Shown here: positions 1-64,000 of the stretch, piece after piece
How the letters are laid out: each line of letters opens with the position of its first letter
How positions within the stretch are numbered: the first letter of the stretch is position 1
Virus record (IMG/VR): IMGVR_UViG_3300031485_000046
From: a virus
DNA: 64,000 nucleotides
Strand: one strand, 5' to 3'
The notes under the pieces: model-generated
The model's database searches: none
The model's input: the letters and a program-made list of their open reading frames with translations, nothing else
Told to the model about the DNA's origin: nothing
Made by a program: the position numbers and the translations under genes

Positions 1-1001
1 AGTGTTTTGACAGAAGGACTGTACTCTAGCCAAACAGCACCTCGTATTCTATCACAATTCCTACATGGTTTATACTCTGGATAATCTTGTTTTGCTTCCA
101 TCAGCATATCAAAGGTAATCTTCTTTTGTTCCATATCCGGATCAAACAAACGAATACCATATTGTTCTCTTGCTGATAGTTCACAATCATCCGTTTGGTT
201 ATACCAACAATCTACGCAAGGTATTTGTCGTTCTCCGCAATATCGCTCCCTATCACTTCTCTTCGCAAGATATACAGCCATCCTTCTTAACTGTTGTTTT
301 TCCGTCATATCGCCTGCTTGAAAAAAAGCTACGTTATTCCCGTTCATCATCGCCCGCATAGCGAATTCAAGGAGCCAAAATGTTTTTCCCCTCTTTTCCG
401 GGCCTGTAATCGCTATGAAAGCGCCTCTAGTAAGTTGGTCGTTCCAGAACTGTCCTAATGCTTTAGGAAATCGTATCAATGATTCGCTTTGTTCTGTGAA
501 GGCTTGCTTTATCAGCATAGGATCAGCAAATGGATCTATAACATGCGAAGATTCATCATCTCCTGACGGGACAAAAGACAAGGCTTCTTTTTCTGCTGAA
601 ACAATATCTCCTTCCTCCACATAATTCATTATGGATTCAGCGTATTGTTTCAACCGTTGGGTGCTGAAATACTGCTTAGTCTGGTCAATAAGATAATCAG
701 AATTGAAATTACCAGCATCCTCGTATTCTTCGTTCAAAGATTCTAGGATTTCGCTGATATACTCAATATCATCTTTCTGCATACCTTTCTTTATCTTCTC
801 CGTGAATATGCCTTCAATATCACGGAACGGAGCTTTATTATATTTCTTGAAGTAATCCACACACCAACTGGATAATAATTTAGCCGTAGATGCTTCCATG
901 TAATGGATTGACCATATCGGAGCGATAGCACGAATAAAATCATCGGACACGATTAAGCCAATAAGGATTTTTCGTTCTATGAATTTATCTGGCTTTTCCA
1001 T
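1..1001 (-). CDS. DnaB/gp4-family replicative DNA helicase, partial (C-terminus beyond window start)
   Basis: Minus-strand frame open from ATG 1001..999 to the window edge (own translation and stop scan; absent from ORF track because unterminated). Walker A 'AITGPEKRGKT' near 381..413 and DnaB-like 'FFQAGDMT'. SD AGGAGGG upstream; directly downstream of DnaC-like loader. Confidence 0.6.
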   Translation of the reverse strand, partial: MEKPDKFIERKILIGLIVSDDFIRAIAPIWSIHYMEASTAKLLSSWCVDYFKKYNKAPFRDIEGIFTEKIKKGMQKDDIEYISEILESLNEEYEDAGNFNSDYLIDQTKQYFSTQRLKQYAESIMNYVEEGDIVSAEKEALSFVPSGDDESSHVIDPFADPMLIKQAFTEQSESLIRFPKALGQFWNDQLTRGAFIAITGPEKRGKTFWLLEFAMRAMMNGNNVAFFQAGDMTEKQQLRRMAVYLAKRSDRERYCGERQIPCVDCWYNQTDDCELSAREQYGIRLFDPDMEQKKITFDMLMEAKQDYPEYKPCRNCDRIRGAVWLEYSPSVKT

Positions 1002-5798: not shown

Positions 5799-6360
5799 GG
5801 CAATCCTCCTGCATTAGGGCTTTCAGTTCGTTTATCGTATCCCAAATTCTTTCGTGTGTCCAACCTTTCTCTCTGAGGATGTGGCGCAATTTCCCACGAA
5901 CTGCTCTACCGCTCATGCTACCATATTCTTCTTGTGCCTCTATAATCATATCATATACGATTTTGGCAGAAGGACTCATACGATCCATCTTTTCTTCCCA
6001 TTCTTCTTTAGCATCTACCGATTCAGGTGATGGTATAGTATATTCCATTTCTTCATCGAAAAAAGTACATGGAACCTTTTTCTGATGATACAGGTAATTG
6101 TTCAGTTTGGATTTTACGCACAAGGCAATCCAATTTATCAATGGTACGTTTTTATCCGCTTTGTATGTATTCAAGGCAACTGTATAGCCAACTGTAGCCT
6201 CAGAAAAAAGTTCCTCAAAATCTACTCCAGAGGTTTTATTGTACGACCAAGCTAATTTCCTTAGAAAGTTCTGGTACTTTTTATAGGTAGCGGTATCAGT
6301 CACAATATATTCCTCCTTTAGGATTTTCTGCTGTACTTGTGATGGTGTGGGCAGTAACAA
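5767..6360 (-). CDS. putative sigma-70-family-like transcription factor
   Basis: 197 aa; segment 'FLRKLAWSY..FEELFSEATVGYTVALNTYKADKNVPLINWIALCVKSKL' resembles sigma region 2; weak, motif-level only. Confidence 0.4.
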   Translation of the reverse strand: MLLPTPSQVQQKILKEEYIVTDTATYKKYQNFLRKLAWSYNKTSGVDFEELFSEATVGYTVALNTYKADKNVPLINWIALCVKSKLNNYLYHQKKVPCTFFDEEMEYTIPSPESVDAKEEWEEKMDRMSPSAKIVYDMIIEAQEEYGSMSGRAVRGKLRHILREKGWTHERIWDTINELKALMQEDCREYNPIVQGF

Positions 6361-6541: not shown

Positions 6542-8569
6542 CTACTCCGCATAGGAATTCAGCATCGCGGTAAGCATAGAGCCTTCAGGAACATCTTCCC
6601 CATCCAGTACCGCAGTAATCACCTTTCTCTTTTCATCTATCATTTCTGCCAACCTTTCTTCAATTGTGCCTCTGGGAAGAAGATACCAAATGTTGACAGC
6701 ATTTTTTTGTCCAATACGATTGCACCTGTCCTCCGCCTGATCTAGGAGCCCAGGTGTCCAAGGCAGTTCAAGGAAAGCTACGTTGTGGGAAGCGGTAAGT
6801 GTGATACCTACTCCAGCCGCCTTAATATTACCTACGAACAATCTTACGGAAGGGTCATTCTGAAATCTATCCACTATCTCTGCTCGTTTTTGGGCAGATA
6901 CAGACCCGTCTATTTTTACCGCAATCCCTGTATTGAATTCATCCATAATGGCTGATATGATTTCCTTGTGGACAGCAAACACTACAAGTTTATGGGAAGT
7001 ATCGTTCAGGAAATCTTTAATCCATTCAATCGCACCCTTTAATGCACCCTTAGCCGCCATAAACCTAAGAGCAGAAATCTGGGCAAGTGCTTCCGCATTA
7101 GAAGCCTTAGCCGCTGCCAACGCACCTTTATTTTCAGTAACCCAACCAATAAAATCTCTTTCTACCTTTCGATATTCCTTCTCATTAGACAAGGCTACAG
7201 GGATGACTGCTCTCTGCTTAGGTGGCAATTCTGTCAGGACTTCTTCTTTCCTTCTACGGATCATAACTCCCTGAAGTTTTTCGTACAATTCTTCGAGATT
7301 AGAAGCACCATTGTAATCCCAACCGAATCCATTGTGCTTGGCATCGCAGTACCGATTGGCAAAGTGCATGAAATTAGGAAAGAGATTAGGTTCTACCATG
7401 CGGATAGCATTGTATATCTCCTTAGGCCGATTGATTACGGGTGTTCCTGACATAGGAATAATATGAGGGATCCTTTTTGCCAATGCTTTCACGGCTTTGG
7501 TTCGGATAGTAGCATTGTTCATTATTGCCTGACATTCATCCAGTACCAGCACCTTAGGACTAAGGCTTGCAAGGTATTCTTGCCATCCTGCCACTATATC
7601 ATAATTAAGGATGATTATGTCAGGGTTATCAAGTTGGTATGCCTTTTTTCCTTCAAGTACAACTGCCTTTCTATCATCAGAAAGGCATCCTTTCACTTCT
7701 TTCAGCCAATTATATTTTACCACTGCTGGTGAAATGACAATAGTAGGCTTCAGTTCAGGATGGGCATGAATGTAGGCAAGGGCTTGAATAGTTTTGCCTA
7801 GTCCCATATCATCTCCAATTATTGCTTTACCATTCCGATGTTCCAAAAAAGCTACTCCCTGTGCTTGGAAAGGGTACAGCTTTTTCTTCAAACCTTCTAT
7901 ATTCGCTTCCTTCATATCATGGACAGATTTCTCTATCCTTGATATGATGTTCACCAGCCCTTCATCAATAGAGAAACCCCATTCTTTTACCTGTTTGATA
8001 GAGGCAGGCGAAGCAGAAGCAACCCAATACTTTTCGGTTTCCTTGCTGACAAATGACCTGTTAGGAAGCGATTTTACCTTCCCAAGCAGATCACCTGTAG
8101 GCTCGAAGGTTAGTTTCATCATATCGCCAGCGACTAATGTGGCGATACTTTTCTGAGGTTCCCGATTACCATCGTAGGATTTGTGAGTAGAAGGCACCTG
8201 AACAGTTCCCGCGTCCTCGTAGGCTATGAGAACAGATTTAGGGAACCAAGAATCAACAACCTTGCTTCTCGTAACACCTTTTGCCATCTCGATCTGTTCT
8301 GGCGTAAGGGATTCAAGAACAAGGTCACGCAAGCCCCAGTCCTTAAGACACTCAGGACCAATGCCAATGAGTTTAGAACCGGGATGGGTAAGTGCTCTTC
8401 CACATTTGGAACAACGAACTTCTGGATCAATCTCACCGTACCCGTATAGGTAAACTGCTCTTGCAGTTTCCCTAAGGATTGCGGCTTTGAAGTATATTGG
8501 TACACCTTTCTCTCTTGCTACTATGGGTCTGGTTCGATAGAACTTTGCAGGCAGCTCCATGAATGTCAT
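6542..8569 (-). CDS. SNF2-family DEAD-like helicase/ATPase with N-terminal zinc ribbon
   Basis: 675 aa; motif I 'DDMGLGKT', motif II 'VLVLDECQ', helicase C motif 'DQAEDRCNRIGQ'; N-terminal 'CSKCG...C' ribbon. Confidence 0.85.
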   Translation of the reverse strand: MTFMELPAKFYRTRPIVAREKGVPIYFKAAILRETARAVYLYGYGEIDPEVRCSKCGRALTHPGSKLIGIGPECLKDWGLRDLVLESLTPEQIEMAKGVTRSKVVDSWFPKSVLIAYEDAGTVQVPSTHKSYDGNREPQKSIATLVAGDMMKLTFEPTGDLLGKVKSLPNRSFVSKETEKYWVASASPASIKQVKEWGFSIDEGLVNIISRIEKSVHDMKEANIEGLKKKLYPFQAQGVAFLEHRNGKAIIGDDMGLGKTIQALAYIHAHPELKPTIVISPAVVKYNWLKEVKGCLSDDRKAVVLEGKKAYQLDNPDIIILNYDIVAGWQEYLASLSPKVLVLDECQAIMNNATIRTKAVKALAKRIPHIIPMSGTPVINRPKEIYNAIRMVEPNLFPNFMHFANRYCDAKHNGFGWDYNGASNLEELYEKLQGVMIRRRKEEVLTELPPKQRAVIPVALSNEKEYRKVERDFIGWVTENKGALAAAKASNAEALAQISALRFMAAKGALKGAIEWIKDFLNDTSHKLVVFAVHKEIISAIMDEFNTGIAVKIDGSVSAQKRAEIVDRFQNDPSVRLFVGNIKAAGVGITLTASHNVAFLELPWTPGLLDQAEDRCNRIGQKNAVNIWYLLPRGTIEERLAEMIDEKRKVITAVLDGEDVPEGSMLTAMLNSYAE

Positions 8570-47191: not shown

Positions 47192-47842
47192 TTATCTAAT
47201 CTGGAATGTTTTTGTAAATCCGTTTCTACTTTTGCACCATCCTACTAGCCAATAACAAAATGGTGTATCACTCAATGCGATCAATATTTTAACAACCCAC
47301 TGGCTCATTATCATGGAAAATAAAACAGGCATGGGCATAATTCCATAAAATGCAATAACGATAAAGATTACCGTATCGAAAAACTGGCTAGATATGGTAC
47401 CTACGTTATTTCTAAGCCACAAATGTTTTCCATGTGTTAAATCCTTTAGCTTATGAAATACCCATACATCATTCAGCTGGCTGACAAGATAAGCAGTCAA
47501 TGAAGCTCCAGTAATCCTACCAACTCTTCCAAAGAGTTCTGTAAAGAATTCCTGCCTCTCATAGAAAGGAGCGGCGGGAAGCATAACAGCGATAAACCCT
47601 AGTGACATAGCAAGCAGACTACAAAAGAATCCTGCCCATACAACCCTTGTAACTACTTTCTTACCCCATACCTCTCCAATCACATCAGTCATAAGAAAAG
47701 TAATTGGGTATGCGATAACACCTGCTGGTAGAATGAAATCCCCAAACATAAACAGTTTTGTTGCCAATACGTTTGCAGTTACCAACGATGTCACAAATAC
47801 TGCAACCAGTGTGATGAATGTTCTTGGAATCTTGAGTTCCAT
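47192..47842 (-). CDS. yhhQ: queuosine-precursor transporter, YhhQ/DUF165 family
   Basis: 216 aa polytopic membrane protein; segments 'MTDVIGEVWG', 'ASLTAYLVSQLNDVWVFHKLKD', 'SQFFDTVIFIVIAF' align with E. coli YhhQ (from memory). Confidence 0.7.
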   Translation of the reverse strand: MELKIPRTFITLVAVFVTSLVTANVLATKLFMFGDFILPAGVIAYPITFLMTDVIGEVWGKKVVTRVVWAGFFCSLLAMSLGFIAVMLPAAPFYERQEFFTELFGRVGRITGASLTAYLVSQLNDVWVFHKLKDLTHGKHLWLRNNVGTISSQFFDTVIFIVIAFYGIMPMPVLFSMIMSQWVVKILIALSDTPFCYWLVGWCKSRNGFTKTFQIR

Positions 47843-52781: not shown

Positions 52782-54056
52782 TTAATCCTCCTTAGCATCC
52801 ATACAATCGTCCCATTTCGCACAATCATCACATTCATCATATTCTTCACAATCTTTTCCGAATACATGACCGTGCGGACACTTGTTCTTTCCAGCTTTCT
52901 TATTTACCTTTTCTTCTTTCTTTCCCTTTTTAGCAGGTTCTTCTTTCAGTTTCTTTCTACCAGTACCATCACAGGGATTGCATACGCCCCCTCTAGAATT
53001 CTTACCAGTACCCTTGCAAGCCACACATTTTTCCTTTTCCGGAATATCTTCCTCTTCTTCCTCTTCTTCTACTTCATCATCATCTTCATCATCGTCCGTA
53101 TCCTCTTCATCCTCCTCTTCTTCATCTTCGTCATCCGTATCTTCATCCTCATCTTCGTCAGAGATGTCGTCCTCGTCCTCGTCATCCTCGTCAGAAGAAT
53201 CATCAGCATCGTCTTCATCCTCTTCGTCAGGATCAGCCTCTTTCTTTTTCTTGGATTTCATCATACTACGGACAGAAGTTCCATCTTCTTCTTCGTCATC
53301 CTCAGTTTCATACTCAAAGAATTTAGCTTCCAGCTCATTATACGTAAGCACCTGAAGAATCTCATCCAGATTAGGAACATCTTTCAGATCCTTTTCCTTA
53401 TATGGCTTTTCACGTTCTTCAAAATCAATTCTGGAGGTAGCGGCGTACTTATTCTTACCAAACTGTTCCTCGCTGAAACGAATCTTGAGAGTAAGCCCTT
53501 CATCAGGATCAGGGAATACAGCATTCGTATCATCTTCTTCAAGTTCCTCATTCAGCTTATCCTGAAAAAGATACTGCGAAATATCCCAAATATGAGGTTT
53601 CTTTTCGTGATCCTTTGAATTCAGAGGCACCACTACGTACAAGTTCCGAAGAGAAGGCTTGAGTGCCTTCAGTTCATCGTCTTCCGCATCTCCATCTTTC
53701 ACTCGCTTAGCTCGATGTTCGCAGATAGGACATTTCTTACCGAAAGTTGTGAGGCAGACAAAGGTTTCCTTATTTGCCCCTATTCCGCGATGTACTTTAT
53801 ACGGCTTCTTATACCACTGCTCTCCAACAGTAGCAATACCAAGATCCACATTCTTATCCATATGCTTTGGGTCTGTAACAGTATATGGAAGAATGTCGAG
53901 TGATACTCTAGAACCCGGCTCTTCTTTGAATACTCGAATATTTTTAGGCAGATTCAGATATCCGTATTTAGAACCTTGTGCTTTCTGCTGTTTCACATTA
54001 CCAGCAACTGCCGCCCTGAATTTGCTGTTACTGCCCTTTTTTCCAAGTTTAGCCAT
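52782..54056 (-). CDS. putative gp32-like ssDNA-binding protein with long poly-acidic tract and C-terminal DnaJ-type CxxCxGxG zinc finger
   Basis: 424 aa; His/Cys spacing 'VHRG..FVCLTTFGKKCPICE' resembles T4 gp32 zinc site; ~100-residue D/E tract; 'CVACKGTG','CNPCDGTG'. Confidence 0.45.
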   Translation of the reverse strand: MAKLGKKGSNSKFRAAVAGNVKQQKAQGSKYGYLNLPKNIRVFKEEPGSRVSLDILPYTVTDPKHMDKNVDLGIATVGEQWYKKPYKVHRGIGANKETFVCLTTFGKKCPICEHRAKRVKDGDAEDDELKALKPSLRNLYVVVPLNSKDHEKKPHIWDISQYLFQDKLNEELEEDDTNAVFPDPDEGLTLKIRFSEEQFGKNKYAATSRIDFEEREKPYKEKDLKDVPNLDEILQVLTYNELEAKFFEYETEDDEEEDGTSVRSMMKSKKKKEADPDEEDEDDADDSSDEDDEDEDDISDEDEDEDTDDEDEEEEDEEDTDDDEDDDEVEEEEEEEDIPEKEKCVACKGTGKNSRGGVCNPCDGTGRKKLKEEPAKKGKKEEKVNKKAGKNKCPHGHVFGKDCEEYDECDDCAKWDDCMDAKED

Positions 54057-55861: not shown

Positions 55862-56068
55862 TTACTCCCTAAACGGAATACACATTTGTCCTTTTGCAGG
55901 TGCACCAGATAGAGATACATTCGTACACATTCCGAGTACCTGTTTCATATCATCCACAGCACATTCCTCGATCATTCCCACAATTTCTCCATCACGAATT
56001 CTAACCAGAAGATAATTGAACCCAATCTCGCTGAACTTACTAGGATACGCCACTATTGTGAATTTCAT
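55862..56068 (-). CDS. hypothetical small protein
   Basis: 68 aa between polymerase and clamp loader. Confidence 0.45.
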   Translation of the reverse strand: MKFTIVAYPSKFSEIGFNYLLVRIRDGEIVGMIEECAVDDMKQVLGMCTNVSLSGAPAKGQMCIPFRE

Positions 56069-56250
56069 AATTTACCCTCCTTCTCAATGCATTCAGTACA
56101 CCTGACAGGTTTTCTGTTATGGCAGAACAACCTGATCCCATACATCAGACAACCGTAGCATGTGTCCATATAATCATACGTAGTTGTGTCAAGGTACTCA
56201 CATGATTCACAATACTTGTTCTTAGGCTTTGCTACTTTTATAATTGCCAA
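56065..56250 (-). CDS. small Cys-rich zinc-finger protein
   Basis: 61 aa; 'CESCEY...CYGC...C..C' Cys pattern. Confidence 0.45.
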   Translation of the reverse strand: MAIIKVAKPKNKYCESCEYLDTTTYDYMDTCYGCLMYGIRLFCHNRKPVRCTECIEKEGKL

Positions 56251-56262
56251 TCCTACCCCTCC

Positions 56263-58080
56263 TTATTTGAAATGGTAATCTCCCTTCTCATTCCAAGAAC
56301 AATCAACAGGACACACTTCTGCTTCTACTTCCAAGGGTACATTTATCCAGCTCCAGTGCTTAGGTAAATCTTCACAAGTAATCCTATGAACAGTAGACGC
56401 AACCATATCTAATTCGTCAGGATGCACATCCAACACCATTGCGTCATGTATCTGTCCGATCAATCTGGATTTCCAGTTCTGTTCTCTGGATATCTTGTCA
56501 ACCTGAATGAACGACCATAACAGACAATGAAATGCACTTCCCTGAATAGGAATATTTATGCATTCATTCCTACGCATGATACCAGAACATCTGAATCCTG
56601 TGTACATGCTCACATACCCGTTTTTTTGATACCCTTCCCACCACTTGTCTTTCCAACGATTATACACTTTGAATCGCCTATTCCAAAAATCATCTTCAAT
56701 TTTCTTGATATGGTCCGTAAACTTATCGAAGGAATCTAGCTTGTTTGCAATCAAGTGGTCGGAAATATGACCTCCGTCATGCTCAATGCCTTCACCTTTC
56801 TTCCATTTGCCTTTAGATAATCCGCACCATTTACAAGCAATATTTTCGGCGCAGTTTACATAATAGTCACCATAGAACTGCGGAAATACAAATCCGTTCT
56901 TTGCCGCTTGCCTCATCATTTTATGCGATGGTATACTCTTGTCTAACTTATCAAGTACAAATATCTGACAAGCCATATCACCGTGCATATCCGATGAAGG
57001 ATCTTCAATGTACTTTCTCATAACAGGGTCATGATGGTAACACTCGCTGATTCTTACTTCCACTCCTGAATAGTCTATTTCAAGTAGCTGGTGACCTGGC
57101 TTAGGAAATATCGCTTTGCGAGTAATCTCCATAGCCTCTTTATCTCGCTTGGGAATATTTTGGAAGTTTATCCGCTCCGATGAATTATGTACGCATATTT
57201 GGTTCACGATAAAATTATGATATTTTTCCACTTCAATATCGTACACATCTACCGGCTCATCAAGGTACTCTATTGTGTGGTCTGTATGATTAGACAATAC
57301 CTTATTAGAAAGACGTGTATCTGATAACGCCCTCGCTTGCACGTATGTTCCATCTATTAGACGGATTTTGTGCTCAGGTGTCACATCTAAGTATCCTTTC
57401 CCACCTCCACCGTTTATAGAGTAATGGATTCGCACAACTTTCTTATGTCCTGTTTTGCCAGCCCATATAACTTTTTGAATAGAAGGGCGGAGTTTATCGT
57501 CAAAACAATACACATAATCACCCTTCTTTACATTTTCAATAGGGGTCCCTTCTGGTTGTGCTTCAAAATCTTTCATTACCAATACTTTAGATCCTTTAGC
57601 TACACAAGAGCGAAATGTCTTTACTGTATGCAAATTAAAGAAAGGATGCAAGTATCCGCCTACTTGTTCTCTTATGAAAGCATCCAGATACGTATCTCGC
57701 ACCTTTTTCAATTTGCGCATTTCCAAAATCCACTTTATCTCAGGAATATCAATCTGGGAAAGTGCTTCATCGTCTGTTGCACCCTTGCCAGATGGTGTCA
57801 ACTTTGCAGGGGTGATTTTCCTAACATTGTACAAAAGGTGTGCTAACTGCCAATTAGAATCAGGGTTAGCCTTAGCACCATACACCTTCGTCCAATGCAT
57901 ATAGAATTTAGTATCCCTGAGTTTTCTATCCAATCGTGCTATTTTTTTGTCAAGGTACTCTTTTTTCTTTAAGCAGTAATCAACATCAATCCGCATTCCT
58001 TCTTGTTCTGCCCTCGCAAAAGCAAGGATGCCATCTTGCAATAGCTGATATGCTTCAGGAAGATTAGGTGTCAGTTGCAT
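56263..58080 (-). CDS. polA: family A DNA polymerase, polymerase-domain subunit (intein-containing)
   Basis: Motif A 'LLEIDYSGVEVR', motif B 'RQAAKNGFVFPQFYG', motif C 'QIHDAMVLD'; SD AAGGAGGG 8 nt before ATG 58080 (track start 58107). Confidence 0.85.
   Translation of the reverse strand: MQLTPNLPEAYQLLQDGILAFARAEQEGMRIDVDYCLKKKEYLDKKIARLDRKLRDTKFYMHWTKVYGAKANPDSNWQLAHLLYNVRKITPAKLTPSGKGATDDEALSQIDIPEIKWILEMRKLKKVRDTYLDAFIREQVGGYLHPFFNLHTVKTFRSCVAKGSKVLVMKDFEAQPEGTPIENVKKGDYVYCFDDKLRPSIQKVIWAGKTGHKKVVRIHYSINGGGGKGYLDVTPEHKIRLIDGTYVQARALSDTRLSNKVLSNHTDHTIEYLDEPVDVYDIEVEKYHNFIVNQICVHNSSERINFQNIPKRDKEAMEITRKAIFPKPGHQLLEIDYSGVEVRISECYHHDPVMRKYIEDPSSDMHGDMACQIFVLDKLDKSIPSHKMMRQAAKNGFVFPQFYGDYYVNCAENIACKWCGLSKGKWKKGEGIEHDGGHISDHLIANKLDSFDKFTDHIKKIEDDFWNRRFKVYNRWKDKWWEGYQKNGYVSMYTGFRCSGIMRRNECINIPIQGSAFHCLLWSFIQVDKISREQNWKSRLIGQIHDAMVLDVHPDELDMVASTVHRITCEDLPKHWSWINVPLEVEAEVCPVDCSWNEKGDYHFK
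57184..57606 (-). other. mini-intein (141 aa, Hint domain only) in the 'TxRxSS' motif of the polymerase
   Basis: Residues C168..N308 of track ORF: block A 'CVAKGSKVLV', block B 'TPEH', block F 'VYDIEVEKYHNFIVN', block G 'CVHN' followed by Ser; flanks join to 'TFRS|SSERINFQNIP' like Pol I 'TGRLSSTDPNLQNIP'. Confidence 0.8.
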
Positions 58081-59342
58081 CCTATGTACCCTCCTTGCTG
58101 AATCCATCGCATTTGTTTAGATGCTAACCGGTAAGTGAACAAACTATCCATACCACAGTATATCAATAGTTTATTCCAAATATCAGATCCTACAGGAACA
58201 TCAAGCAATTTGTTCATGGAATTGCTATCTTTATCATCCGCCCCTTTAAGATATGGAGCGACCTCATCATCATACCCTGCTACACCAAAATTGATATAGG
58301 TTTGTATCTTCAATCCTGTGATGTCTGGTCTGTTATCAAGAATGTGTGTAGCCAACATAGTATCCCATATCCAGTTTTTTACTTCATACCCCAGAATATT
58401 TTGTGTCCATGTGTGTTCAAACTTCAGATTTTGGGCAATCTTTCCTATCTTGTCTGATTGCAAAATTTCCTTAAGCAGTCTATTTCCTTTCTTACTTTTA
58501 GGCATCCCAAAAACTATTGCATCTTCAGGATTACTACACATGGACATGCAGATGATTTTGTGCTTGCTTGTATCATGCGGTTTAAGGCCCGTCGTTTCAT
58601 AATCAATAGCAATAGAAAACGGAAACTTTCTAGAAAGAAACTCTTCAAAAATTCCTACTAGCTCACTTTCTGATTTTACTATCTTGATAGCCGTCATTTC
58701 ATCTGGATATGTTTGCATAGACATGTCCACTGTATTTAATGCCCTGTCAAGGTCCTGTTTCCATACTGTTCGATATTCCTGTGCATCTTGTTTTTCTACA
58801 AACTCTGGATGAAATATCGGGCAGATCCACGTATTGTATTTCCTATCTGGAATAGTAAATCCTCTCCATTTATTCATTCCACCTAAATTCTTTGTCCAGA
58901 TAGAACCTATCACGGAGTTTAATGCTAGTTCACCTACAAGAATTATCACTTTAGGTTTATACTGCTCAATAGTAGATAGCACTCTTCGTCGGCAACATTG
59001 AACTTCTTTTGTCCACGGATTGGTGGTTTCCTTGGACCCTGAAGCATAGCAAGACAAAGCAAAGAGATTCAGACAGTCTTTGAACAAATCAACGCCTCTA
59101 CGTTCAAATTCTCGCCTAAGCGTTGTTCCAAATCTGTCTTGCCACGGTTTGCCTACTCGATCATCTCTACTGCTTGGCATATCACCAATGACCATTATTT
59201 TCTTTTCAAATTCCCCGAATGGTGCCATTCTAGGAGACGAAATATCTTTATACAACCCACAAGAAGCGCAAGAGAAAGCCTTATTACCACTAGGCCTAGT
59301 TTTAGATTTAGTTTCTTCTACTGAAAAGAATCCACTAGCCAT
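58071..59342 (-). CDS. DNA polymerase N-terminal subunit: UDG-like (family 4-type) domain + 3'-5' exonuclease domain
   Basis: 423 aa; 'CASCGL' and 'FHPEF' UDG-family-4-like elements with degenerate motif A ('GDMPS'); Exo I 'IAIDYETTGL', Exo II 'NLKFEH', Exo III 'YCGMDSLFTY'. Confidence 0.75.
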   Translation of the reverse strand: MASGFFSVEETKSKTRPSGNKAFSCASCGLYKDISSPRMAPFGEFEKKIMVIGDMPSSRDDRVGKPWQDRFGTTLRREFERRGVDLFKDCLNLFALSCYASGSKETTNPWTKEVQCCRRRVLSTIEQYKPKVIILVGELALNSVIGSIWTKNLGGMNKWRGFTIPDRKYNTWICPIFHPEFVEKQDAQEYRTVWKQDLDRALNTVDMSMQTYPDEMTAIKIVKSESELVGIFEEFLSRKFPFSIAIDYETTGLKPHDTSKHKIICMSMCSNPEDAIVFGMPKSKKGNRLLKEILQSDKIGKIAQNLKFEHTWTQNILGYEVKNWIWDTMLATHILDNRPDITGLKIQTYINFGVAGYDDEVAPYLKGADDKDSNSMNKLLDVPVGSDIWNKLLIYCGMDSLFTYRLASKQMRWIQQGGYIGCN

Positions 59343-59346
59343 CTTA

Positions 59347-60354
59347 CTAACCTTTCATTTCTAGAACGCCAACATACTCCCAATTATCTCCTATGAACTT
59401 GATAGCGTTTTCACCAAGAATGCATTTTTTAAGCATTTTACTTACATCCTTAAGAAGTTCAGGACGAATAGTAAATTTCTTTTCCTCACCTTTATATTTC
59501 AGATTCATCTCTTCTTCAAACCAGCCAACTTCAGACTGACCACGAATAATCATGCGTTTGGGCTTGATAGTTATTGTTACAGCATTACTTTCTGCTTCAC
59601 TGGAAAAGATAGACGCACGGTCTAACACCTCTTCAATAGCTCTAGGCAATTCAAAATCCGCACCCTGCACATCCATATATTTCGACACATCTGGAAATGT
59701 ATCTCCGAAGAAAGTTCGGCAAGAATACTCCGTACCTTTCTCAGTCTTGAAATGAATCCACCCGTGCCCTTCTGCAATATGTGTGGGTACACATCCATTC
59801 AATCTCTTTATAGTGCTTGCTGGCAAAAGAAACGTAGACACAGGCATCTTTTCAGTTAACTTGTACACCATTATTCTATAACTGTCAGACGCTTCAACGG
59901 AACCTTTTTCTGTCACATTTACACAAGTAATGATCGGACGGCTCATATCATTGGAACAAGCAAAGGAAACAAATTTAAGCGCCTTCATAAGACCTTCAGG
60001 TACTTTCTTCCATTTGCTTTTCTCACCAATCGCTTCTAGAGGCATCCGTATCTTTTCTTGAAGAGTAAGTCCTGCTTTAGCTTTACCTGCTTTCATGCGA
60101 ACCTCAGAACCATTTGCCTCTATTTCTACATCATTGGTTTTCATTTTGCACAGCACCTGATAAAACTCGTCAGCCTTGATAGCACCCTCAAGCCCATCTA
60201 ATCCTTCCACAGGATGGGACACACTTATTTCGTCATTGAATGTCATTACTTTCCCATCCTTAAAAGCAAAGCAGGTAGACTGTTCAATGTGCTCCTTAGA
60301 CGCAAGACCGGGCTTCACTATTTCAAGAGCTTCCAGAATATCTTCCCTATTCAT
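59347..60354 (-). CDS. DNA sliding clamp (DnaN/beta-like)
   Basis: 335 aa; 'SRPIITCVNVTEKGSVEASDSYRIMVYKL' resembles DnaN domain-2 'RYYLNGM..VATDGHRLAV'; adjacent to polymerase. Confidence 0.6.
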   Translation of the reverse strand: MNREDILEALEIVKPGLASKEHIEQSTCFAFKDGKVMTFNDEISVSHPVEGLDGLEGAIKADEFYQVLCKMKTNDVEIEANGSEVRMKAGKAKAGLTLQEKIRMPLEAIGEKSKWKKVPEGLMKALKFVSFACSNDMSRPIITCVNVTEKGSVEASDSYRIMVYKLTEKMPVSTFLLPASTIKRLNGCVPTHIAEGHGWIHFKTEKGTEYSCRTFFGDTFPDVSKYMDVQGADFELPRAIEEVLDRASIFSSEAESNAVTITIKPKRMIIRGQSEVGWFEEEMNLKYKGEEKKFTIRPELLKDVSKMLKKCILGENAIKFIGDNWEYVGVLEMKG

Positions 60355-60941
60355 ATTATATCCACCCCTTTTGCCCTATTTCGTTTTACCTGCCGATGTA
60401 TAAGAAATGCAAACTGTTTATACATGTTAATAAAATTATACCCAACATGCTTTAGTTTGCCTTTCTGTATTTCCCACGGAGTGCATATCCTATCTGCTTT
60501 CTCCCATCGCATGTCAAGTACATATTTATCAAAAGGAATAAAATCGTATCGTTCCGCCCAATAAGAAGACATAAGCCCATTATTCAGAACAAGTACACAA
60601 AAATGGATGTCGTATTTACTGCATTTATTATACAATTCCTCACAACTATGCATTGTCTTGGGCAGATGCAGTCTAGGGTAATTACGAAGCTGGGAGTAAG
60701 ACTGCCTTATCCAGAATTTTACTGGAATTGTTGTCTGTTCATTTTTTAGTCCTACATCCACAATTAAACCAATCCCTGAGAACATGTTTTGCGTCTTACC
60801 GGGTAATTCACACCGCAACGGACTCATAGGCATATTAACTAATTTTTCAACATACCTGAGAACCATGCCGTTGTACTTATTTATATCTTCCTGCGGATTT
60901 CTTCCCTTAGTGTCTGATTCTACCTTGAACATCGGTTCCAT
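60351..60941 (-). CDS. hypothetical protein (between clamp and DpdA-like gene)
   Basis: 196 aa; no QueD/QueE/FolE signature recognised. Confidence 0.55.
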   Translation of the reverse strand: MEPMFKVESDTKGRNPQEDINKYNGMVLRYVEKLVNMPMSPLRCELPGKTQNMFSGIGLIVDVGLKNEQTTIPVKFWIRQSYSQLRNYPRLHLPKTMHSCEELYNKCSKYDIHFCVLVLNNGLMSSYWAERYDFIPFDKYVLDMRWEKADRICTPWEIQKGKLKHVGYNFINMYKQFAFLIHRQVKRNRAKGVDII

Positions 60942-60956
60942 ATTATGTTTCCCTCC

Positions 60957-61928
60957 TTATATAGTGAATAATCCTTTGCTTACTTGGAATTGAACTCCTT
61001 TGCGATATTCATTCACCCATTGCTCTAATCCTAGAATGTATCGGATGTTAATTTCACAACGAACATCAAAGGATTGAATCTCATCATACGTGTACCCATC
61101 ATCTTCAATCTGTTTTAATTTCCGAGGTGTAAGTACACCCATTCCTTTACTAGACCGTTGCTTCGATACACAAAACACCATCGGTTGCTTTGAATAATCA
61201 GGATTCTTGAATCCACCGATAGGGTACATGATAGAACCCCACGCGGCAACTATTCTCCAAGTAGCGGCATCAGCACTAGTAAAAGGTAGCGTTTTCAGCA
61301 CGGGCAACATCCATACTGCAAATCCGTGTGTTTTAACACGGATTCTATTTATATGGATGTAAGAAAATACTGACCGCATCCAAGATAGCCTAGATTGGAC
61401 ACTCATATCGTTTGCAGGTGACACTCCGATATAGTCAGTAAGTTCTACCATTTTGTGCAACCATTCCCAATCTTCTCCTTGATGGAAGACATGAATAGGA
61501 GTGATCCCTGCATCTTTCATCCTAAGAAGATTTTCGTATCCTTTCGCGGCCGCTGTATTGATAATTTTCTTATTCTCCGCAGTCTTCACTCGATTGAGAT
61601 GTGTAGAAGTACCAGGAGAACCGGGGATCACATCGAGGTTGACTACCCTCAACTTTTTATTATCATCCGCCGCTATTTGGATTGCCTCTTTAGCATAACT
61701 AATGTAGGCGTCAATGGGAATAGAATGACCTTTAGCCCATGCTGAAAACGCACCTGAATCAAGAATGATGTTTCCATTTAATGTAGGAACTTGTCTGCAC
61801 CATTCTTTAAGCTGTTTTGGATAGAGATAAGAAACCAGTCTGTTCGTAATCCGCCTGTTGAGTTCCTTACCGCGTTCTTCCTTAGGATTAAAAACAGGAC
61901 CGGCAAAATACAAACGGACTGGCTTCAT
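60957..61928 (-). CDS. dpdA: DpdA-like tRNA-guanine-transglycosylase-family DNA 7-deazaguanine transglycosylase
   Basis: 323 aa; 'ILDSGAFSAW' resembles TGT 'DSGGFQ' catalytic motif; adjacent to queF and queC. Confidence 0.65.
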   Translation of the reverse strand: MKPVRLYFAGPVFNPKEERGKELNRRITNRLVSYLYPKQLKEWCRQVPTLNGNIILDSGAFSAWAKGHSIPIDAYISYAKEAIQIAADDNKKLRVVNLDVIPGSPGTSTHLNRVKTAENKKIINTAAAKGYENLLRMKDAGITPIHVFHQGEDWEWLHKMVELTDYIGVSPANDMSVQSRLSWMRSVFSYIHINRIRVKTHGFAVWMLPVLKTLPFTSADAATWRIVAAWGSIMYPIGGFKNPDYSKQPMVFCVSKQRSSKGMGVLTPRKLKQIEDDGYTYDEIQSFDVRCEINIRYILGLEQWVNEYRKGVQFQVSKGLFTI

Positions 61929-61930
61929 TT

Positions 61931-62374
61931 TCAGTTACCTGTTCCGTCGTACTCGGCAATCACCGAAATATCAGTACCACCTCTGCGATTGAAATTAGCC
62001 TCTATTCGCATGTGGTACGGTTTGCAAGCGTTCGACAGATCGTCCAGTATTTTGTTTGTAACAGACTCCATAAACGCTCCGTGCTGACGATATGCTCCCA
62101 TGTATATCTTGAGTGCTTTCGTTTCCAAACAAAAATCCTTTGGAAAGTATCGAATCGTGATAGTGCCAAAATCAGGATTTCCTGTACGCGGACACAGACT
62201 GGAAAATTCCGTGAATACGAACTCCGTGGCGTATTGCCTGTCTTTGCACGGATTATCAAATACTTCAAGAAGAGCTGGATCTGGATTATTGTACCTGTCG
62301 TACGGTACGACTGTTCCGAGGTTTTTCAGATGGTCTACATTCACTTTTCTATCCATTGTTTGCACCCTCCTCAT
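61931..62374 (-). CDS. queF: NADPH-dependent 7-cyano-7-deazaguanine reductase (unimodular QueF)
   Basis: ~145 aa; catalytic-Cys region 'FSSLCPRTGNPDFGTITIRY' and QueF motif-like 'ETKALKIY'. Confidence 0.8.
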   Translation of the reverse strand: MRRVQTMDRKVNVDHLKNLGTVVPYDRYNNPDPALLEVFDNPCKDRQYATEFVFTEFSSLCPRTGNPDFGTITIRYFPKDFCLETKALKIYMGAYRQHGAFMESVTNKILDDLSNACKPYHMRIEANFNRRGGTDISVIAEYDGTGN

Positions 62375-63044
62375 AGAATACTGGGTCGATCAGATTGTTT
62401 TCTGCAAAGGCCTCAAGGCGTTCATAACAACTTCCACATTTTCCGCAAGGATTCGGTTGGTTCTTGTAACAAGTTCTTGTAAGGTGATATGGTGCGTTAT
62501 TTGCAATACCATACTGCACTATCTGACTTTTAGACATGTGAAGGAACGGTGCAAGTATATTCACATTTCTATCCGTACCAAGATAAATCGCTGTATCCAT
62601 TGCTTTATGAAATTCTGGGCGACAATCAGGGTAAATAGCATGATCGCCTCTATGAATTCCTATAGCAATATTCTCTATACCTTTTGACCACGCCATACCG
62701 GCTAGGATCGACAGGAACACTAGATTACGAGCAGGTACCACCGTCTGACTCATATTCGATGATTCATAGTGTCCTTCCGGTATTTCTCCACCGCTTAGAA
62801 GCAGACTAGATTCCATTCCAGTAAATGCTCCGGACAGGTCTACAACTTCGTAGGTCAATTCGCAAGGAACGGCAGACACATAATATTTCAATACTGCGTC
62901 TGCCGCTCTTCGTTCGTACACATTGTGTTTGCTACCGTACTGGAAATTTACACAATGGATTTTCTTGAATTCCTTGCGAATAAGCCAAGCAAGAACTGTT
63001 GCAGAATCCAGTCCTCCTGAGAAAGAAAGGACTGCGGAACGCAT
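62349..63044 (-). CDS. queC: 7-cyano-7-deazaguanine synthase
   Basis: Start at ATG 63044 (track ORF 62349..63188 carries an implausible Arg/Lys-rich extension); PP-loop 'SFSGGLDS'; zinc site 'CYKNQPNPCGKCGSC'. Confidence 0.85.
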   Translation of the reverse strand: MRSAVLSFSGGLDSATVLAWLIRKEFKKIHCVNFQYGSKHNVYERRAADAVLKYYVSAVPCELTYEVVDLSGAFTGMESSLLLSGGEIPEGHYESSNMSQTVVPARNLVFLSILAGMAWSKGIENIAIGIHRGDHAIYPDCRPEFHKAMDTAIYLGTDRNVNILAPFLHMSKSQIVQYGIANNAPYHLTRTCYKNQPNPCGKCGSCYERLEAFAENNLIDPVFYEEGANNG

Positions 63045-63045
63045 C

Positions 63046-63963
63046 TTACTTCTTCTTTCCAGCCTTCTTGCCAGCTTTCGCTTCCTTAGCCGGAGCGGTC
63101 TTTGCAGGCGCTTCCTTCTTTGCAGAAGCTTTCTTTTCCGCCATTTCTGCCTTCGCCTCCTTCTTTTTAGAAGATTTACTACCACCATCGTGCTTCACGA
63201 TTTCCTTAGTGATCTTACTGCCTTTCTCACACTTGATATCCGTGAACTTCACGATGTTGCCATCTTCCTTGTCAATGTAGATAAGCACAGGGAAGCGGCA
63301 ATATTTAGGATTAGTCCCATCAGAAAGAATTGTAGAAAGAGCGGCGATGGTTGCGTCGGGGAACTGCTTTGCCGCAAGTTCGATCAGATCCTTTTTGCTG
63401 TACCGACCCTCATTGATAAGGTCGATAAAAAATTCGATCCTTTTGGCAGTCTTATTGCCACCAAATATCTCATCCTTCGTTTTCGTGGGCTTATCAGATT
63501 TTGCAGGCTTTTCTGCCTTCGGAGCCTTAGCAGGCTTTTCTTCCTTGGCTTTACTCTTGCCCTTCTTAGGAATAGGAAGTACCTCTATTTCGTCTTCCTC
63601 TTCTTCCTCTACATCGTCACCGTCTTCGACATCTTCGTCCTCATCGCTTTCGTCCCCATCTTCCCCTTCCTCGTTGACCCCTTCATCGTCTTCGTCTTCA
63701 TCGTCAGCTTCTTCGTCCCCTTCGACTTCTTCCTCATCCGCATCCTCCTCGTCGGCATCCTCTTCCTCTTCATCAGCATACTTAGCCTGAATCTGTGCAA
63801 GAATATCCATCGTTTCCTCGGAAAGTCCATCCTCTTCGCTTACAGCTTCAGAAGCCTCAAGCAGTTCAGCTTCCAGTTCGTCAGTACCGAGCTTTACATC
63901 AATGGGAGGCTCGATAATAGTATTAATCTCCTTAGCCGCCTTAACCAGTTCACTTTTCTTCAT
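63046..63963 (-). CDS. hypothetical protein with ~70-residue poly-acidic tract and Lys/Ala-rich histone-H1-like C-terminus
   Basis: 305 aa; D/E run about 63560..63780; C-terminal 'KKEAKAEMAEKKASAKKEAPAKTAPAKEAKAGKKAGKKK'. Confidence 0.6.
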   Translation of the reverse strand: MKKSELVKAAKEINTIIEPPIDVKLGTDELEAELLEASEAVSEEDGLSEETMDILAQIQAKYADEEEEDADEEDADEEEVEGDEEADDEDEDDEGVNEEGEDGDESDEDEDVEDGDDVEEEEEDEIEVLPIPKKGKSKAKEEKPAKAPKAEKPAKSDKPTKTKDEIFGGNKTAKRIEFFIDLINEGRYSKKDLIELAAKQFPDATIAALSTILSDGTNPKYCRFPVLIYIDKEDGNIVKFTDIKCEKGSKITKEIVKHDGGSKSSKKKEAKAEMAEKKASAKKEAPAKTAPAKEAKAGKKAGKKK

Positions 63964-64000
63964 AATCTTTGTTCCCTCCTAAATAGATTTTTGTGGATCG

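Follow-up and report, generated by a model that had tools for sequence, protein, structure and literature searches.

What does a phage do with a protein that joins a long acidic stretch to a lysine- and alanine-rich basic tail, and why should its gene stand directly before the genes for a modified DNA base? The question is raised by the IMG/VR virus record IMGVR_UViG_3300031485_000046, of which a stretch of 64,000 nucleotides (nt), called here the window, was analysed. The gene concerned, labelled gene X, lies at 63046..63963 on the minus strand and encodes a protein of 305 amino acids (aa), X. Phage 7-deazaguanine DNA modification has so far been described as a set of enzymes, namely FolE, QueD, QueE, QueC, QueF, DpdA and tailoring enzymes; X is outside the described pathway proteins, and the new aspect is its standing as a conserved partner of queC in phage DNA-modification clusters. 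Our preferred reading, to which we assign a probability of roughly one in three (about 0.35), is that X serves as an adaptor without enzymatic activity, which by pairing with QueC keeps the closing part of base synthesis at or close to the phage DNA or the replisome, for use by DpdA.

Conservation of the X-queC gene pair

The Que, DnaB and clamp proteins of the window and of its relatives were compared by tblastn with 17 + 20 IMG/VR loci and 57 metagenome loci (loci are given by L numbers and related proteins by P numbers), and 50 of the metagenome loci were judgeable for queC adjacency. The scoring was corrected for L001, L009-L012, L016 and L036, stop-to-stop open reading frames (ORFs) of queC starting upstream of the true ATG. 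The commonest gene order was dnaB-queD-queE-X-queC-folE-queF-dpdA-clamp. Of the 50 judgeable metagenome loci, 35 had queC within 150 nt downstream of X and three more had it at about 600 nt; in all 16 IMG/VR contigs with que genes it was next to X (at about 560-600 nt in L016). Among the distinct proteins that carry both the N-terminal domain and the winged helix described below, 27 out of 27 were queC-adjacent, 26 of them directly and that of L016 at about 560-600 nt, and the family members lacking que neighbors are mostly short paralogues without the N-terminal domain (107-181 aa; about 300 aa in L098). In the loci with both ends callable, the distance from the stop of X to the start of queC ranged from -26 to +90 nt and in most cases did not exceed 12 nt. 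What the initial annotation had pointed out, a link to the 7-deazaguanine genes, is therefore borne out, and the fixed X-queC order across relatives makes it much stronger than suspected.

The upstream neighbour of X, on the other hand, varies: it is mostly queE, with folE in L081, L084 and L092, queD in L075, and dnaB directly upstream in L091, L100, L101 and the window clade. X had been described as heading the operon, which holds in so far as it is the first gene of the que cluster in the window clade; nonetheless a co-directional dnaB-like gene lies 110 nt upstream, and in sister clades gene X is found in mid-cluster (queD-queE-X-queC-folE-queF-dpdA). The X-queC pair persists in loci where QueC is only about 30% and DnaB about 33% identical (L037, L040). 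Gene pairs that stay adjacent across rearranging operons were reportedly found by Dandekar et al. in 1998 to encode, as a rule, physically interacting proteins and, since the adjacency of X and queC survives the shuffling of the other cluster genes, X and QueC may be read as physically paired. About 600 nt separate X from queC in L016/L074 and L087/L088, a gap that is probably due to an inserted small gene.

Anatomy of the protein

The 305-codon ORF starts with an ATG at 63963..63961, ends with a TAA at 63048..63046, and is preceded by a Shine-Dalgarno-like AGGAGG (63975..63980, minus strand) that direct reading of the sequence places 11 nt ahead of the ATG. The 305-aa gene first reported at this position is hence retained as ATG-initiated, with its strand corrected to minus. 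Its reading frame is supported by protein-level conservation among close homologues, of which 61 were found at 67-100% identity; an identical protein is present on a 64,752-bp JGI contig and on a 60.6-kb Logan contig. A poly-Ser ORF on the plus strand is the mirror image of gene X.

X is a modular protein, and its structure was predicted with AlphaFold2 (AF2) using a 27-sequence family alignment. An N-terminal three-helix domain (residues 1-62, 63778..63963, minus strand; helices 3-14, 27-40 and 49-66) reaches a predicted local distance difference test score (pLDDT) of about 90. It is 97% conserved within the window clade, and it is common to distant relatives, with a family consensus of L..AAKELN..LGLDP.I. 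The domain is followed by the poly-acidic tract (residues 63-125, 63589..63777, minus strand; pLDDT <50), where 48 of the 63 residues are Asp or Glu (76%) and not one is Lys, Arg or His, giving a net charge of -48. The acidic run announced by the initial annotation is therefore real, its length being about 63 rather than about 70 residues, and its composition is far from chance. Also confirmed was the view of X as the second poly-acidic protein, since a six-frame scan of the window yielded just two ORFs with a 30-residue stretch of at least 70% Asp/Glu, the other encoding a 424-aa protein (54056..52782). At the DNA level the tract consists of a degenerate 15-nt GAN repeat. Among 60 close homologues its length changes between 56 and 81 residues with a steady Asp/Glu content of 69-79%, and in the same homologues both folded domains are 95-97% conserved and indel-free. 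The repeat and the length variation fit expansion and contraction under selection on charge and not on sequence.

A basic disordered linker rich in Lys, Pro and Ala connects the tract to the second folded domain (residues 126-165, 63469..63588, minus strand; 33% Lys, 15% Pro, pLDDT <50) and measures 27-48 aa in the clade. The C-terminal domain (residues 166-245, 63229..63468, minus strand), which carries the family motif TILSDGTNPKYCRF, consists of helices 171-185, 190-200 and 206-217 and of strands 226-231 and 237-244, again with a pLDDT of about 90; this predicted H1-H2-H3 bundle followed by a β-hairpin wing assigns it to the winged-helix superfamily. The protein ends with the basic tail already recognized in the initial annotation (residues 263-305, 63049..63177, minus strand; disordered, pLDDT <50), made of 40% Lys, 28% Ala and 5% Pro with a net charge of +12. 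Residues 69-166 and 261-300 are predicted to be disordered. With -48 in the tract, +6 in the linker, +2 in the winged helix and +12 in the tail, the segment charges sum to about -38 and X is strongly acidic overall. For a relative of 172 aa, whose linker is short and neutral, both domains were predicted with pLDDT >90 and a predicted template modelling score of merely 0.46 and, because of this low value despite confident domains, the two would behave as beads on a string and not as a docked unit.

Distribution of the family and search for known relatives

Whole X, its single domains and 95 relatives received no family assignment from Pfam, PHROGs or NCBIfam. The searches returned compositional or sub-threshold matches (Nop14, BUD22, Cac1_C with E 0.0018 for X, and DUF7669; among the relatives DUF7669, MarR_2 and HTH_40), and the relative P0169 came barely above the DUF7669 cutoff (24.3 vs. 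23 bits). X falls in none of the curated winged-helix families (PadR, MarR, Fur, ArgR, Linker_histone and others) at Pfam and NCBIfam thresholds, and neither X nor the 95 relatives, save P0153, have a Pfam or PHROG match to the 7-deazaguanine enzyme families (FolE, QueD, QueE, QueC, QueF, DpdA-C, DpdL/M/N, Gat-QueC, ArcS). Sequence profile searches of the PDB with both domain profiles were empty, and no significant match came from Foldseek searches of PDB and BFVD (best E 1.1 and 0.29). J-domain look-alikes of the N-terminal domain were rejected, as the HPD motif is absent. Among GenBank phages (INPHARED, 50,697 records) no match was obtained by megablast of positions 56000-64000 or by tblastn of X and of P0073, a relative free of low-complexity sequence; the DnaB-like neighbour has remote, partial matches only in the same collection.

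An exhaustive hidden Markov model search with the winged-helix profile (cut-off E≤1e-3) recovered 492 cluster representatives, 273 of these at E≤1e-10. In nearly all host proteins, which measure about 50-470 aa, the winged helix comes last in the chain, and its motif T..L.D.KN.KY..F is near-invariant, with the N and the Y invariant in 95 diverse members. The family is essentially limited to contigs from phages and metagenomes: a single match, on an 8-kb contig of a metagenome-assembled genome, came from 185,579 species genomes. The N-terminal domain is frequent among its members, some of which have an additional N-terminal domain. The disordered linker between the two domains differs greatly among members in length and in charge, and the other segments are unevenly distributed. 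Family-wide the acidic tract spans 0 to 117 aa; a tract of at least 10 aa is absent in 100 of 162 relatives and one of at least 20 aa is present in just 29 of the 162. A Lys/Ala-rich extension after the winged helix occurs in the window clade and otherwise solely in P0062 and P0109, and some relatives have one to five SAP/HeH-like modules inserted between acidic tract and winged helix. The acidic tract and the histone H1-like tail are hence lineage-specific additions to a conserved two-domain scaffold.

One 69.7-kb phage contig (IMGVR_UViG_3300037109_000068; L021/L044 and L030) has three KN.KY winged-helix genes, i.e., a full-length queC-adjacent gene and two short paralogues elsewhere, which are without the N-terminal domain. 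Searched against a set of 5.8 billion proteins, the N-domain profile found two short proteins only. One of the two, a 73-aa stand-alone N-terminal domain (P0221, L105-L107), is encoded on a bacterial chromosome upstream of yjbQ and trkAH, in 14 contigs; this copy beside yjbQ is not informative on function, and it indicates that the domain is not phage-restricted.

Apparent exchange of the C-terminal domain

In a sister clade (L002, L003, L019, L020, L022-L025), hereafter the radical-SAM (S-adenosylmethionine) clade, the que genes are replaced by two radical-SAM enzymes and a pyridoxal phosphate (PLP) enzyme. The upstream module is the same, with a MazZ-like dGTP diphosphohydrolase followed by dnaB, and the locus may encode another pathway of DNA hypermodification. 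The gene after dnaB encodes an X-like protein, X', which retains the N-terminal domain and an acidic tract of 50-117 aa and ends in a different small C-terminal domain. That this domain might be a diverged KN.KY winged helix was rejected on a hhalign probability of 0.1%. The C-terminal domain co-varies with the downstream enzyme set, and the N-terminal domain with the acidic tract does not.

A further association was met in P0153 (L104, 288-1454), where a DUF3109/CxxCxxCC domain of the DpdM family is fused to two tandem KN.KY winged helices. DpdM is the preQ1-DNA methyltransferase (PMC10516641).

A possible adaptor of QueC

According to the reading that we favor, X would pair physically with QueC, and the last steps of base synthesis would be held on or near the phage DNA or the replisome, the base being thereby delivered to DNA-bound DpdA. 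Because the C-terminal domain co-varies with the enzymes, a specific contact, to QueC or to DNA, may be assigned to the winged helix, and to the N-terminal domain the binding of a partner that is shared by clades whose modification enzymes differ. The Lys-rich segments (the Lys/Ala tail and the Lys/Pro/Ala linker, as well as the SAP/HeH-like modules of relatives) could confer non-specific affinity for DNA. The Asp/Glu tract might fold back onto these basic segments, in the manner of HMGB1, DNA binding would then stay weak and mobile, and the trapping of X on bulk DNA would be prevented. Asp/Glu repeats beside basic DNA-binding segments have been indeed described to autoinhibit binding and to speed the search along DNA, both in HMGB1 and in engineered repeats (PMC10250230). 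X shares with HMGB1 the presence of a long Asp/Glu repeat and basic segments in one chain, and by analogy its fold-back could weaken binding and speed the search (PMC10250230). HMGB1 is nevertheless a eukaryotic HMG-box (high mobility group) protein with a C-terminal acidic tail, whereas the tract of X is internal, between two unrelated folded domains.

Another possible parallel is DpdB, a larger protein of the ParB-like ATPase type that pairs with DpdA. Like DpdB, X would be a non-transglycosylase protein of a 7-deazaguanine cluster aiding the DNA step; unlike DpdB, which is an accessory partner of the bacterial DpdA (PMC10516641), X has neither an enzymatic domain nor DpdB similarity, and gene order pairs it with queC and not with dpdA.

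A number of observations weigh against the proposed adaptor. X cannot be generally required, because DpdA alone modifies DNA in E. coli (PMC10516641) and the cultured 7-deazaguanine phages have no X homologue in the GenBank phage records. All the loci come from one broad phage lineage, so that the synteny is partly shared ancestry. In 11 of the 50 judgeable metagenome loci winged-helix paralogues were found with no que genes nearby. The N-terminal domain, in turn, is not que-specific, since it persists in the que-free clade and as the 73-aa stand-alone bacterial protein. The third or "recognition" helix of the winged helix, TIAALSTILSDG, includes no basic residue and the domain is near neutral (net +2), which makes a canonical reading of DNA by it doubtful; by analogy with cullins, the winged helix of X may be of the protein-binding type. 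Finally, the fusion with the DpdM-type domain comes from one sequence only, whose short contig is free of que genes and has neighbors of cpYpsA and GGACT type.

A more far-reaching version of the adaptor, which we consider less probable again, would make X a dedicated structural subunit of a phage 7-deazaguanine machine that binds both QueC and the DNA or replisome, with a hand-over of preQ0/preQ1 to DpdA at the fork. The KN.KY loop would here be a new site for enzyme docking or for recognition of the modified base, and the swappable C-terminal domain would retarget the scaffold to other enzymes, as in the clade with radical-SAM and PLP enzymes.

Alternative explanations

Four other functions were ranked behind the adaptor. 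The one placed highest, even so unlikely, is that X is a DNA-anchored acidic decoy, in which the winged helix and the Lys-rich segments dock on DNA and the Asp/Glu tract mimics single-stranded nucleic acid, trapping restriction enzymes, RNA polymerase or nucleoid proteins. Its phage precedent is the SPO1 protein Gp44, an RNA polymerase inhibitor of host takeover with a DNA-binding motif in residues 1-55 and a disordered tract in residues 56-122 (57% Asp/Glu) that binds the β and β' subunits, for which a DNA anchor combined with a flexible acidic nucleic-acid mimic has been proposed (PMC8208478). The layout of X parallels that of Gp44, with a small folded domain followed by a disordered tract of 60-70 mostly Asp/Glu residues (in X, 63 aa at 76%) devoid of basic residues and by further C-terminal sequence that includes basic segments; the large net negative charge of X and the recurrence of acidic tracts in several sublineages, up to 117 aa and including the radical-SAM clade, point in the same direction. 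Homology to Gp44 was nonetheless rejected (BLASTP gave E 6.2 with X and E 100 with X', and the N-domain profile aligned by hhalign to Gp44 1-63 had a probability of 0.1%), and X differs from it in its C-terminal winged helix, in having relatives without acidic tract, and in its position, which is within a module of replication and 7-deazaguanine genes and in tight coupling with queC rather than among the early host-takeover genes. The tract is shorter than 10 aa in 100 of 162 relatives holding the same genomic position and, most relatives in this position being without it, the conserved function must be independent of the acidic tract. In Ocr and ArdA, B-DNA is imitated by the surface carboxylates of a rigid, folded dimer (PMC3439906, PMC2731889). 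X resembles these phage and mobile-element proteins in being very acidic; however, its acidic part is predicted to be disordered and of low complexity, and neither sequence nor fold matches them. The likeness to anti-restriction or nucleoid-remodelling proteins suggested by the initial annotation therefore stands for the anatomy, with Gp44 as precedent, and fails on homology, on the predicted disorder of the tract and on the dispensability of tract and tail within the family.

We hold it rather improbable that X is a linker-histone-like nucleoid protein, which would coat or compact replicating phage DNA non-specifically and owe its place beside queC merely to inheritance. Linker histones H1/H5 and the bacterial H1-like, Lys/Ala-rich proteins such as Hc1 and AlgP are the relevant comparison set. 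As in H1/H5, a winged-helix domain is followed in X by a Lys/Ala(/Pro)-rich disordered tail, the domain being flanked by such segments on both sides; among the weak, non-significant structural matches are the globular domain of yeast H1 and the winged-helix domain of CAF-1, and relatives carry SAP/HeH-like modules. Yet X has no match to Linker_histone (PF00538), H1 is not among significant structural matches, the Lys/Ala tail is missing in most family members, and the net charge, at about -38, has the sign opposite to that of a histone-like protein. Pure inheritance, moreover, explains poorly how the X-queC pair outlasts the rearrangement of all the other que genes. An equally small chance is given to a cluster-specific regulator of transcription or translation, whose winged helix would bind an operator near the que genes, or sense an intermediate like PadR/MarR-type proteins, and so set the expression of queC, queF and dpdA. 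Regulators are often encoded beside their targets, and the strong conservation of the KN.KY loop hints at a ligand or site that it recognizes specifically; on the other side stand a recognition helix without basic residues, a dimerisation element that is not evident, and long disordered regions, SAP-like modules and a 63-aa Asp/Glu tract that would be unusual in a simple repressor. No riboswitch or other conserved RNA was detected upstream of X or queC, and the promoter and terminator scan around gene X did not rise above shuffled expectation, with one weak site (9 of 12 matches) in the 110-nt gap after the dnaB-like gene. The least probable of the four is a replisome accessory factor tied to the DnaB-like helicase, for instance by assisting its loading or by linking helicase and polymerase through an acidic tail, a type of role for which T7 gp2.5 and T4 gp32 use acidic tails. 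The gene comes directly after dnaB in the radical-SAM clade as it does in the window clade and L091/L100/L101, and N-terminal domain and acidic tract form the part common to clades with different modification enzymes. In most loci, however, queD and queE part X from dnaB and queC stays adjacent, and the tract is internal instead of C-terminal, and often absent.

If X is a non-enzymatic partner of QueC, it would add an organisational layer to 7-deazaguanine modification, i.e., the place and time of base production with respect to replicating DNA, and would provide a function for an unannotated family of about 500 sequence clusters found almost only in uncultured phages. That the C-terminal domain is apparently swapped along with the enzyme set suggests a scaffold which DNA-hypermodification pathways can reuse, and the poly-Asp/Glu tract offers a natural test case, in a prokaryotic virus, for charge-based autoinhibition of DNA binding. 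Should X act as a decoy instead, it would be a second, independent disordered DNA mimic of the Gp44 kind.

Neighborhood of gene X in the window

The genes given here with window coordinates are on the minus strand. The ATG of queC (62349..63044; 231 aa, Pfam QueC E 5.8e-56 with a match from residue 4, PHROG 1550) is 1 nt past the stop of gene X, and the 279-aa queC ORF reported by the ORF finder is an upstream over-extension. There follow a queF-like gene (61931..62374; 147 aa, Pfam QueF E 4.5e-29) and a gene for a DpdA-like DNA transglycosylase (60957..61928; 323 aa), which matches PHROG 887, queuine tRNA-ribosyltransferase, with E 1e-41 and has no Pfam match. Further downstream are a 196-aa protein, a sliding clamp and a polymerase; the 196-aa protein (60351..60941), between dpdA and the clamp gene, is found in the window clade only and has no Pfam or PHROG match. 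In a 98%-identical relative (L009, 6041-7483) an insertion of about 900 bp interrupts the queF-like gene, leaving tblastn pieces at 6041-6223 and 7133-7483, and may be a mobile intron or a homing-endonuclease insertion.

Upstream of gene X, the co-directional DnaB-like helicase gene wraps the window end: its 5' part is at 3..1001 (333 aa at 100% identity to L001 8352-9890) and the remainder is beyond 64000. Farther upstream on the same strand are an IstB/DnaC-like loader, a primase-like gene, a sigma-like gene and a SNF2 helicase. The 64,752-bp contig has an apparent terminal overlap of 141 bp, pointing to a circular or permuted genome of about 64.6 kb. In a 165-kb contig (JGI24728J21555_1000008; L048-L050) the same locus is present three times with a spacing of 69,649 bp, the contig being a concatemer assembled from the genome, about 69.6 kb long, of a related phage.

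The window clade is without folE, queD and queE and retains queC, queF and dpdA. A Vut_1/YhhQ-type transporter (47192..47842; Pfam E 1.7e-53), of a family that imports queuosine precursors, is encoded elsewhere in the window, and its presence while the three early genes are missing suggests precursor salvage or reliance on host 7-carboxy-7-deazaguanine (CDG). The 424-aa acidic protein (52782..54056) belongs to the replication module and contains several CxxC pairs after an Asp/Glu tract of about 75 residues; it has no Pfam match and may be similar to single-stranded DNA-binding proteins (SSB). The family-A DNA polymerase (56263..58107) contains an intein, as indicated in the L001 gene table by an Intein_splicing match between two DNA_pol_A matches, and its exonuclease/uracil-DNA glycosylase (UDG) part is a separate upstream gene.

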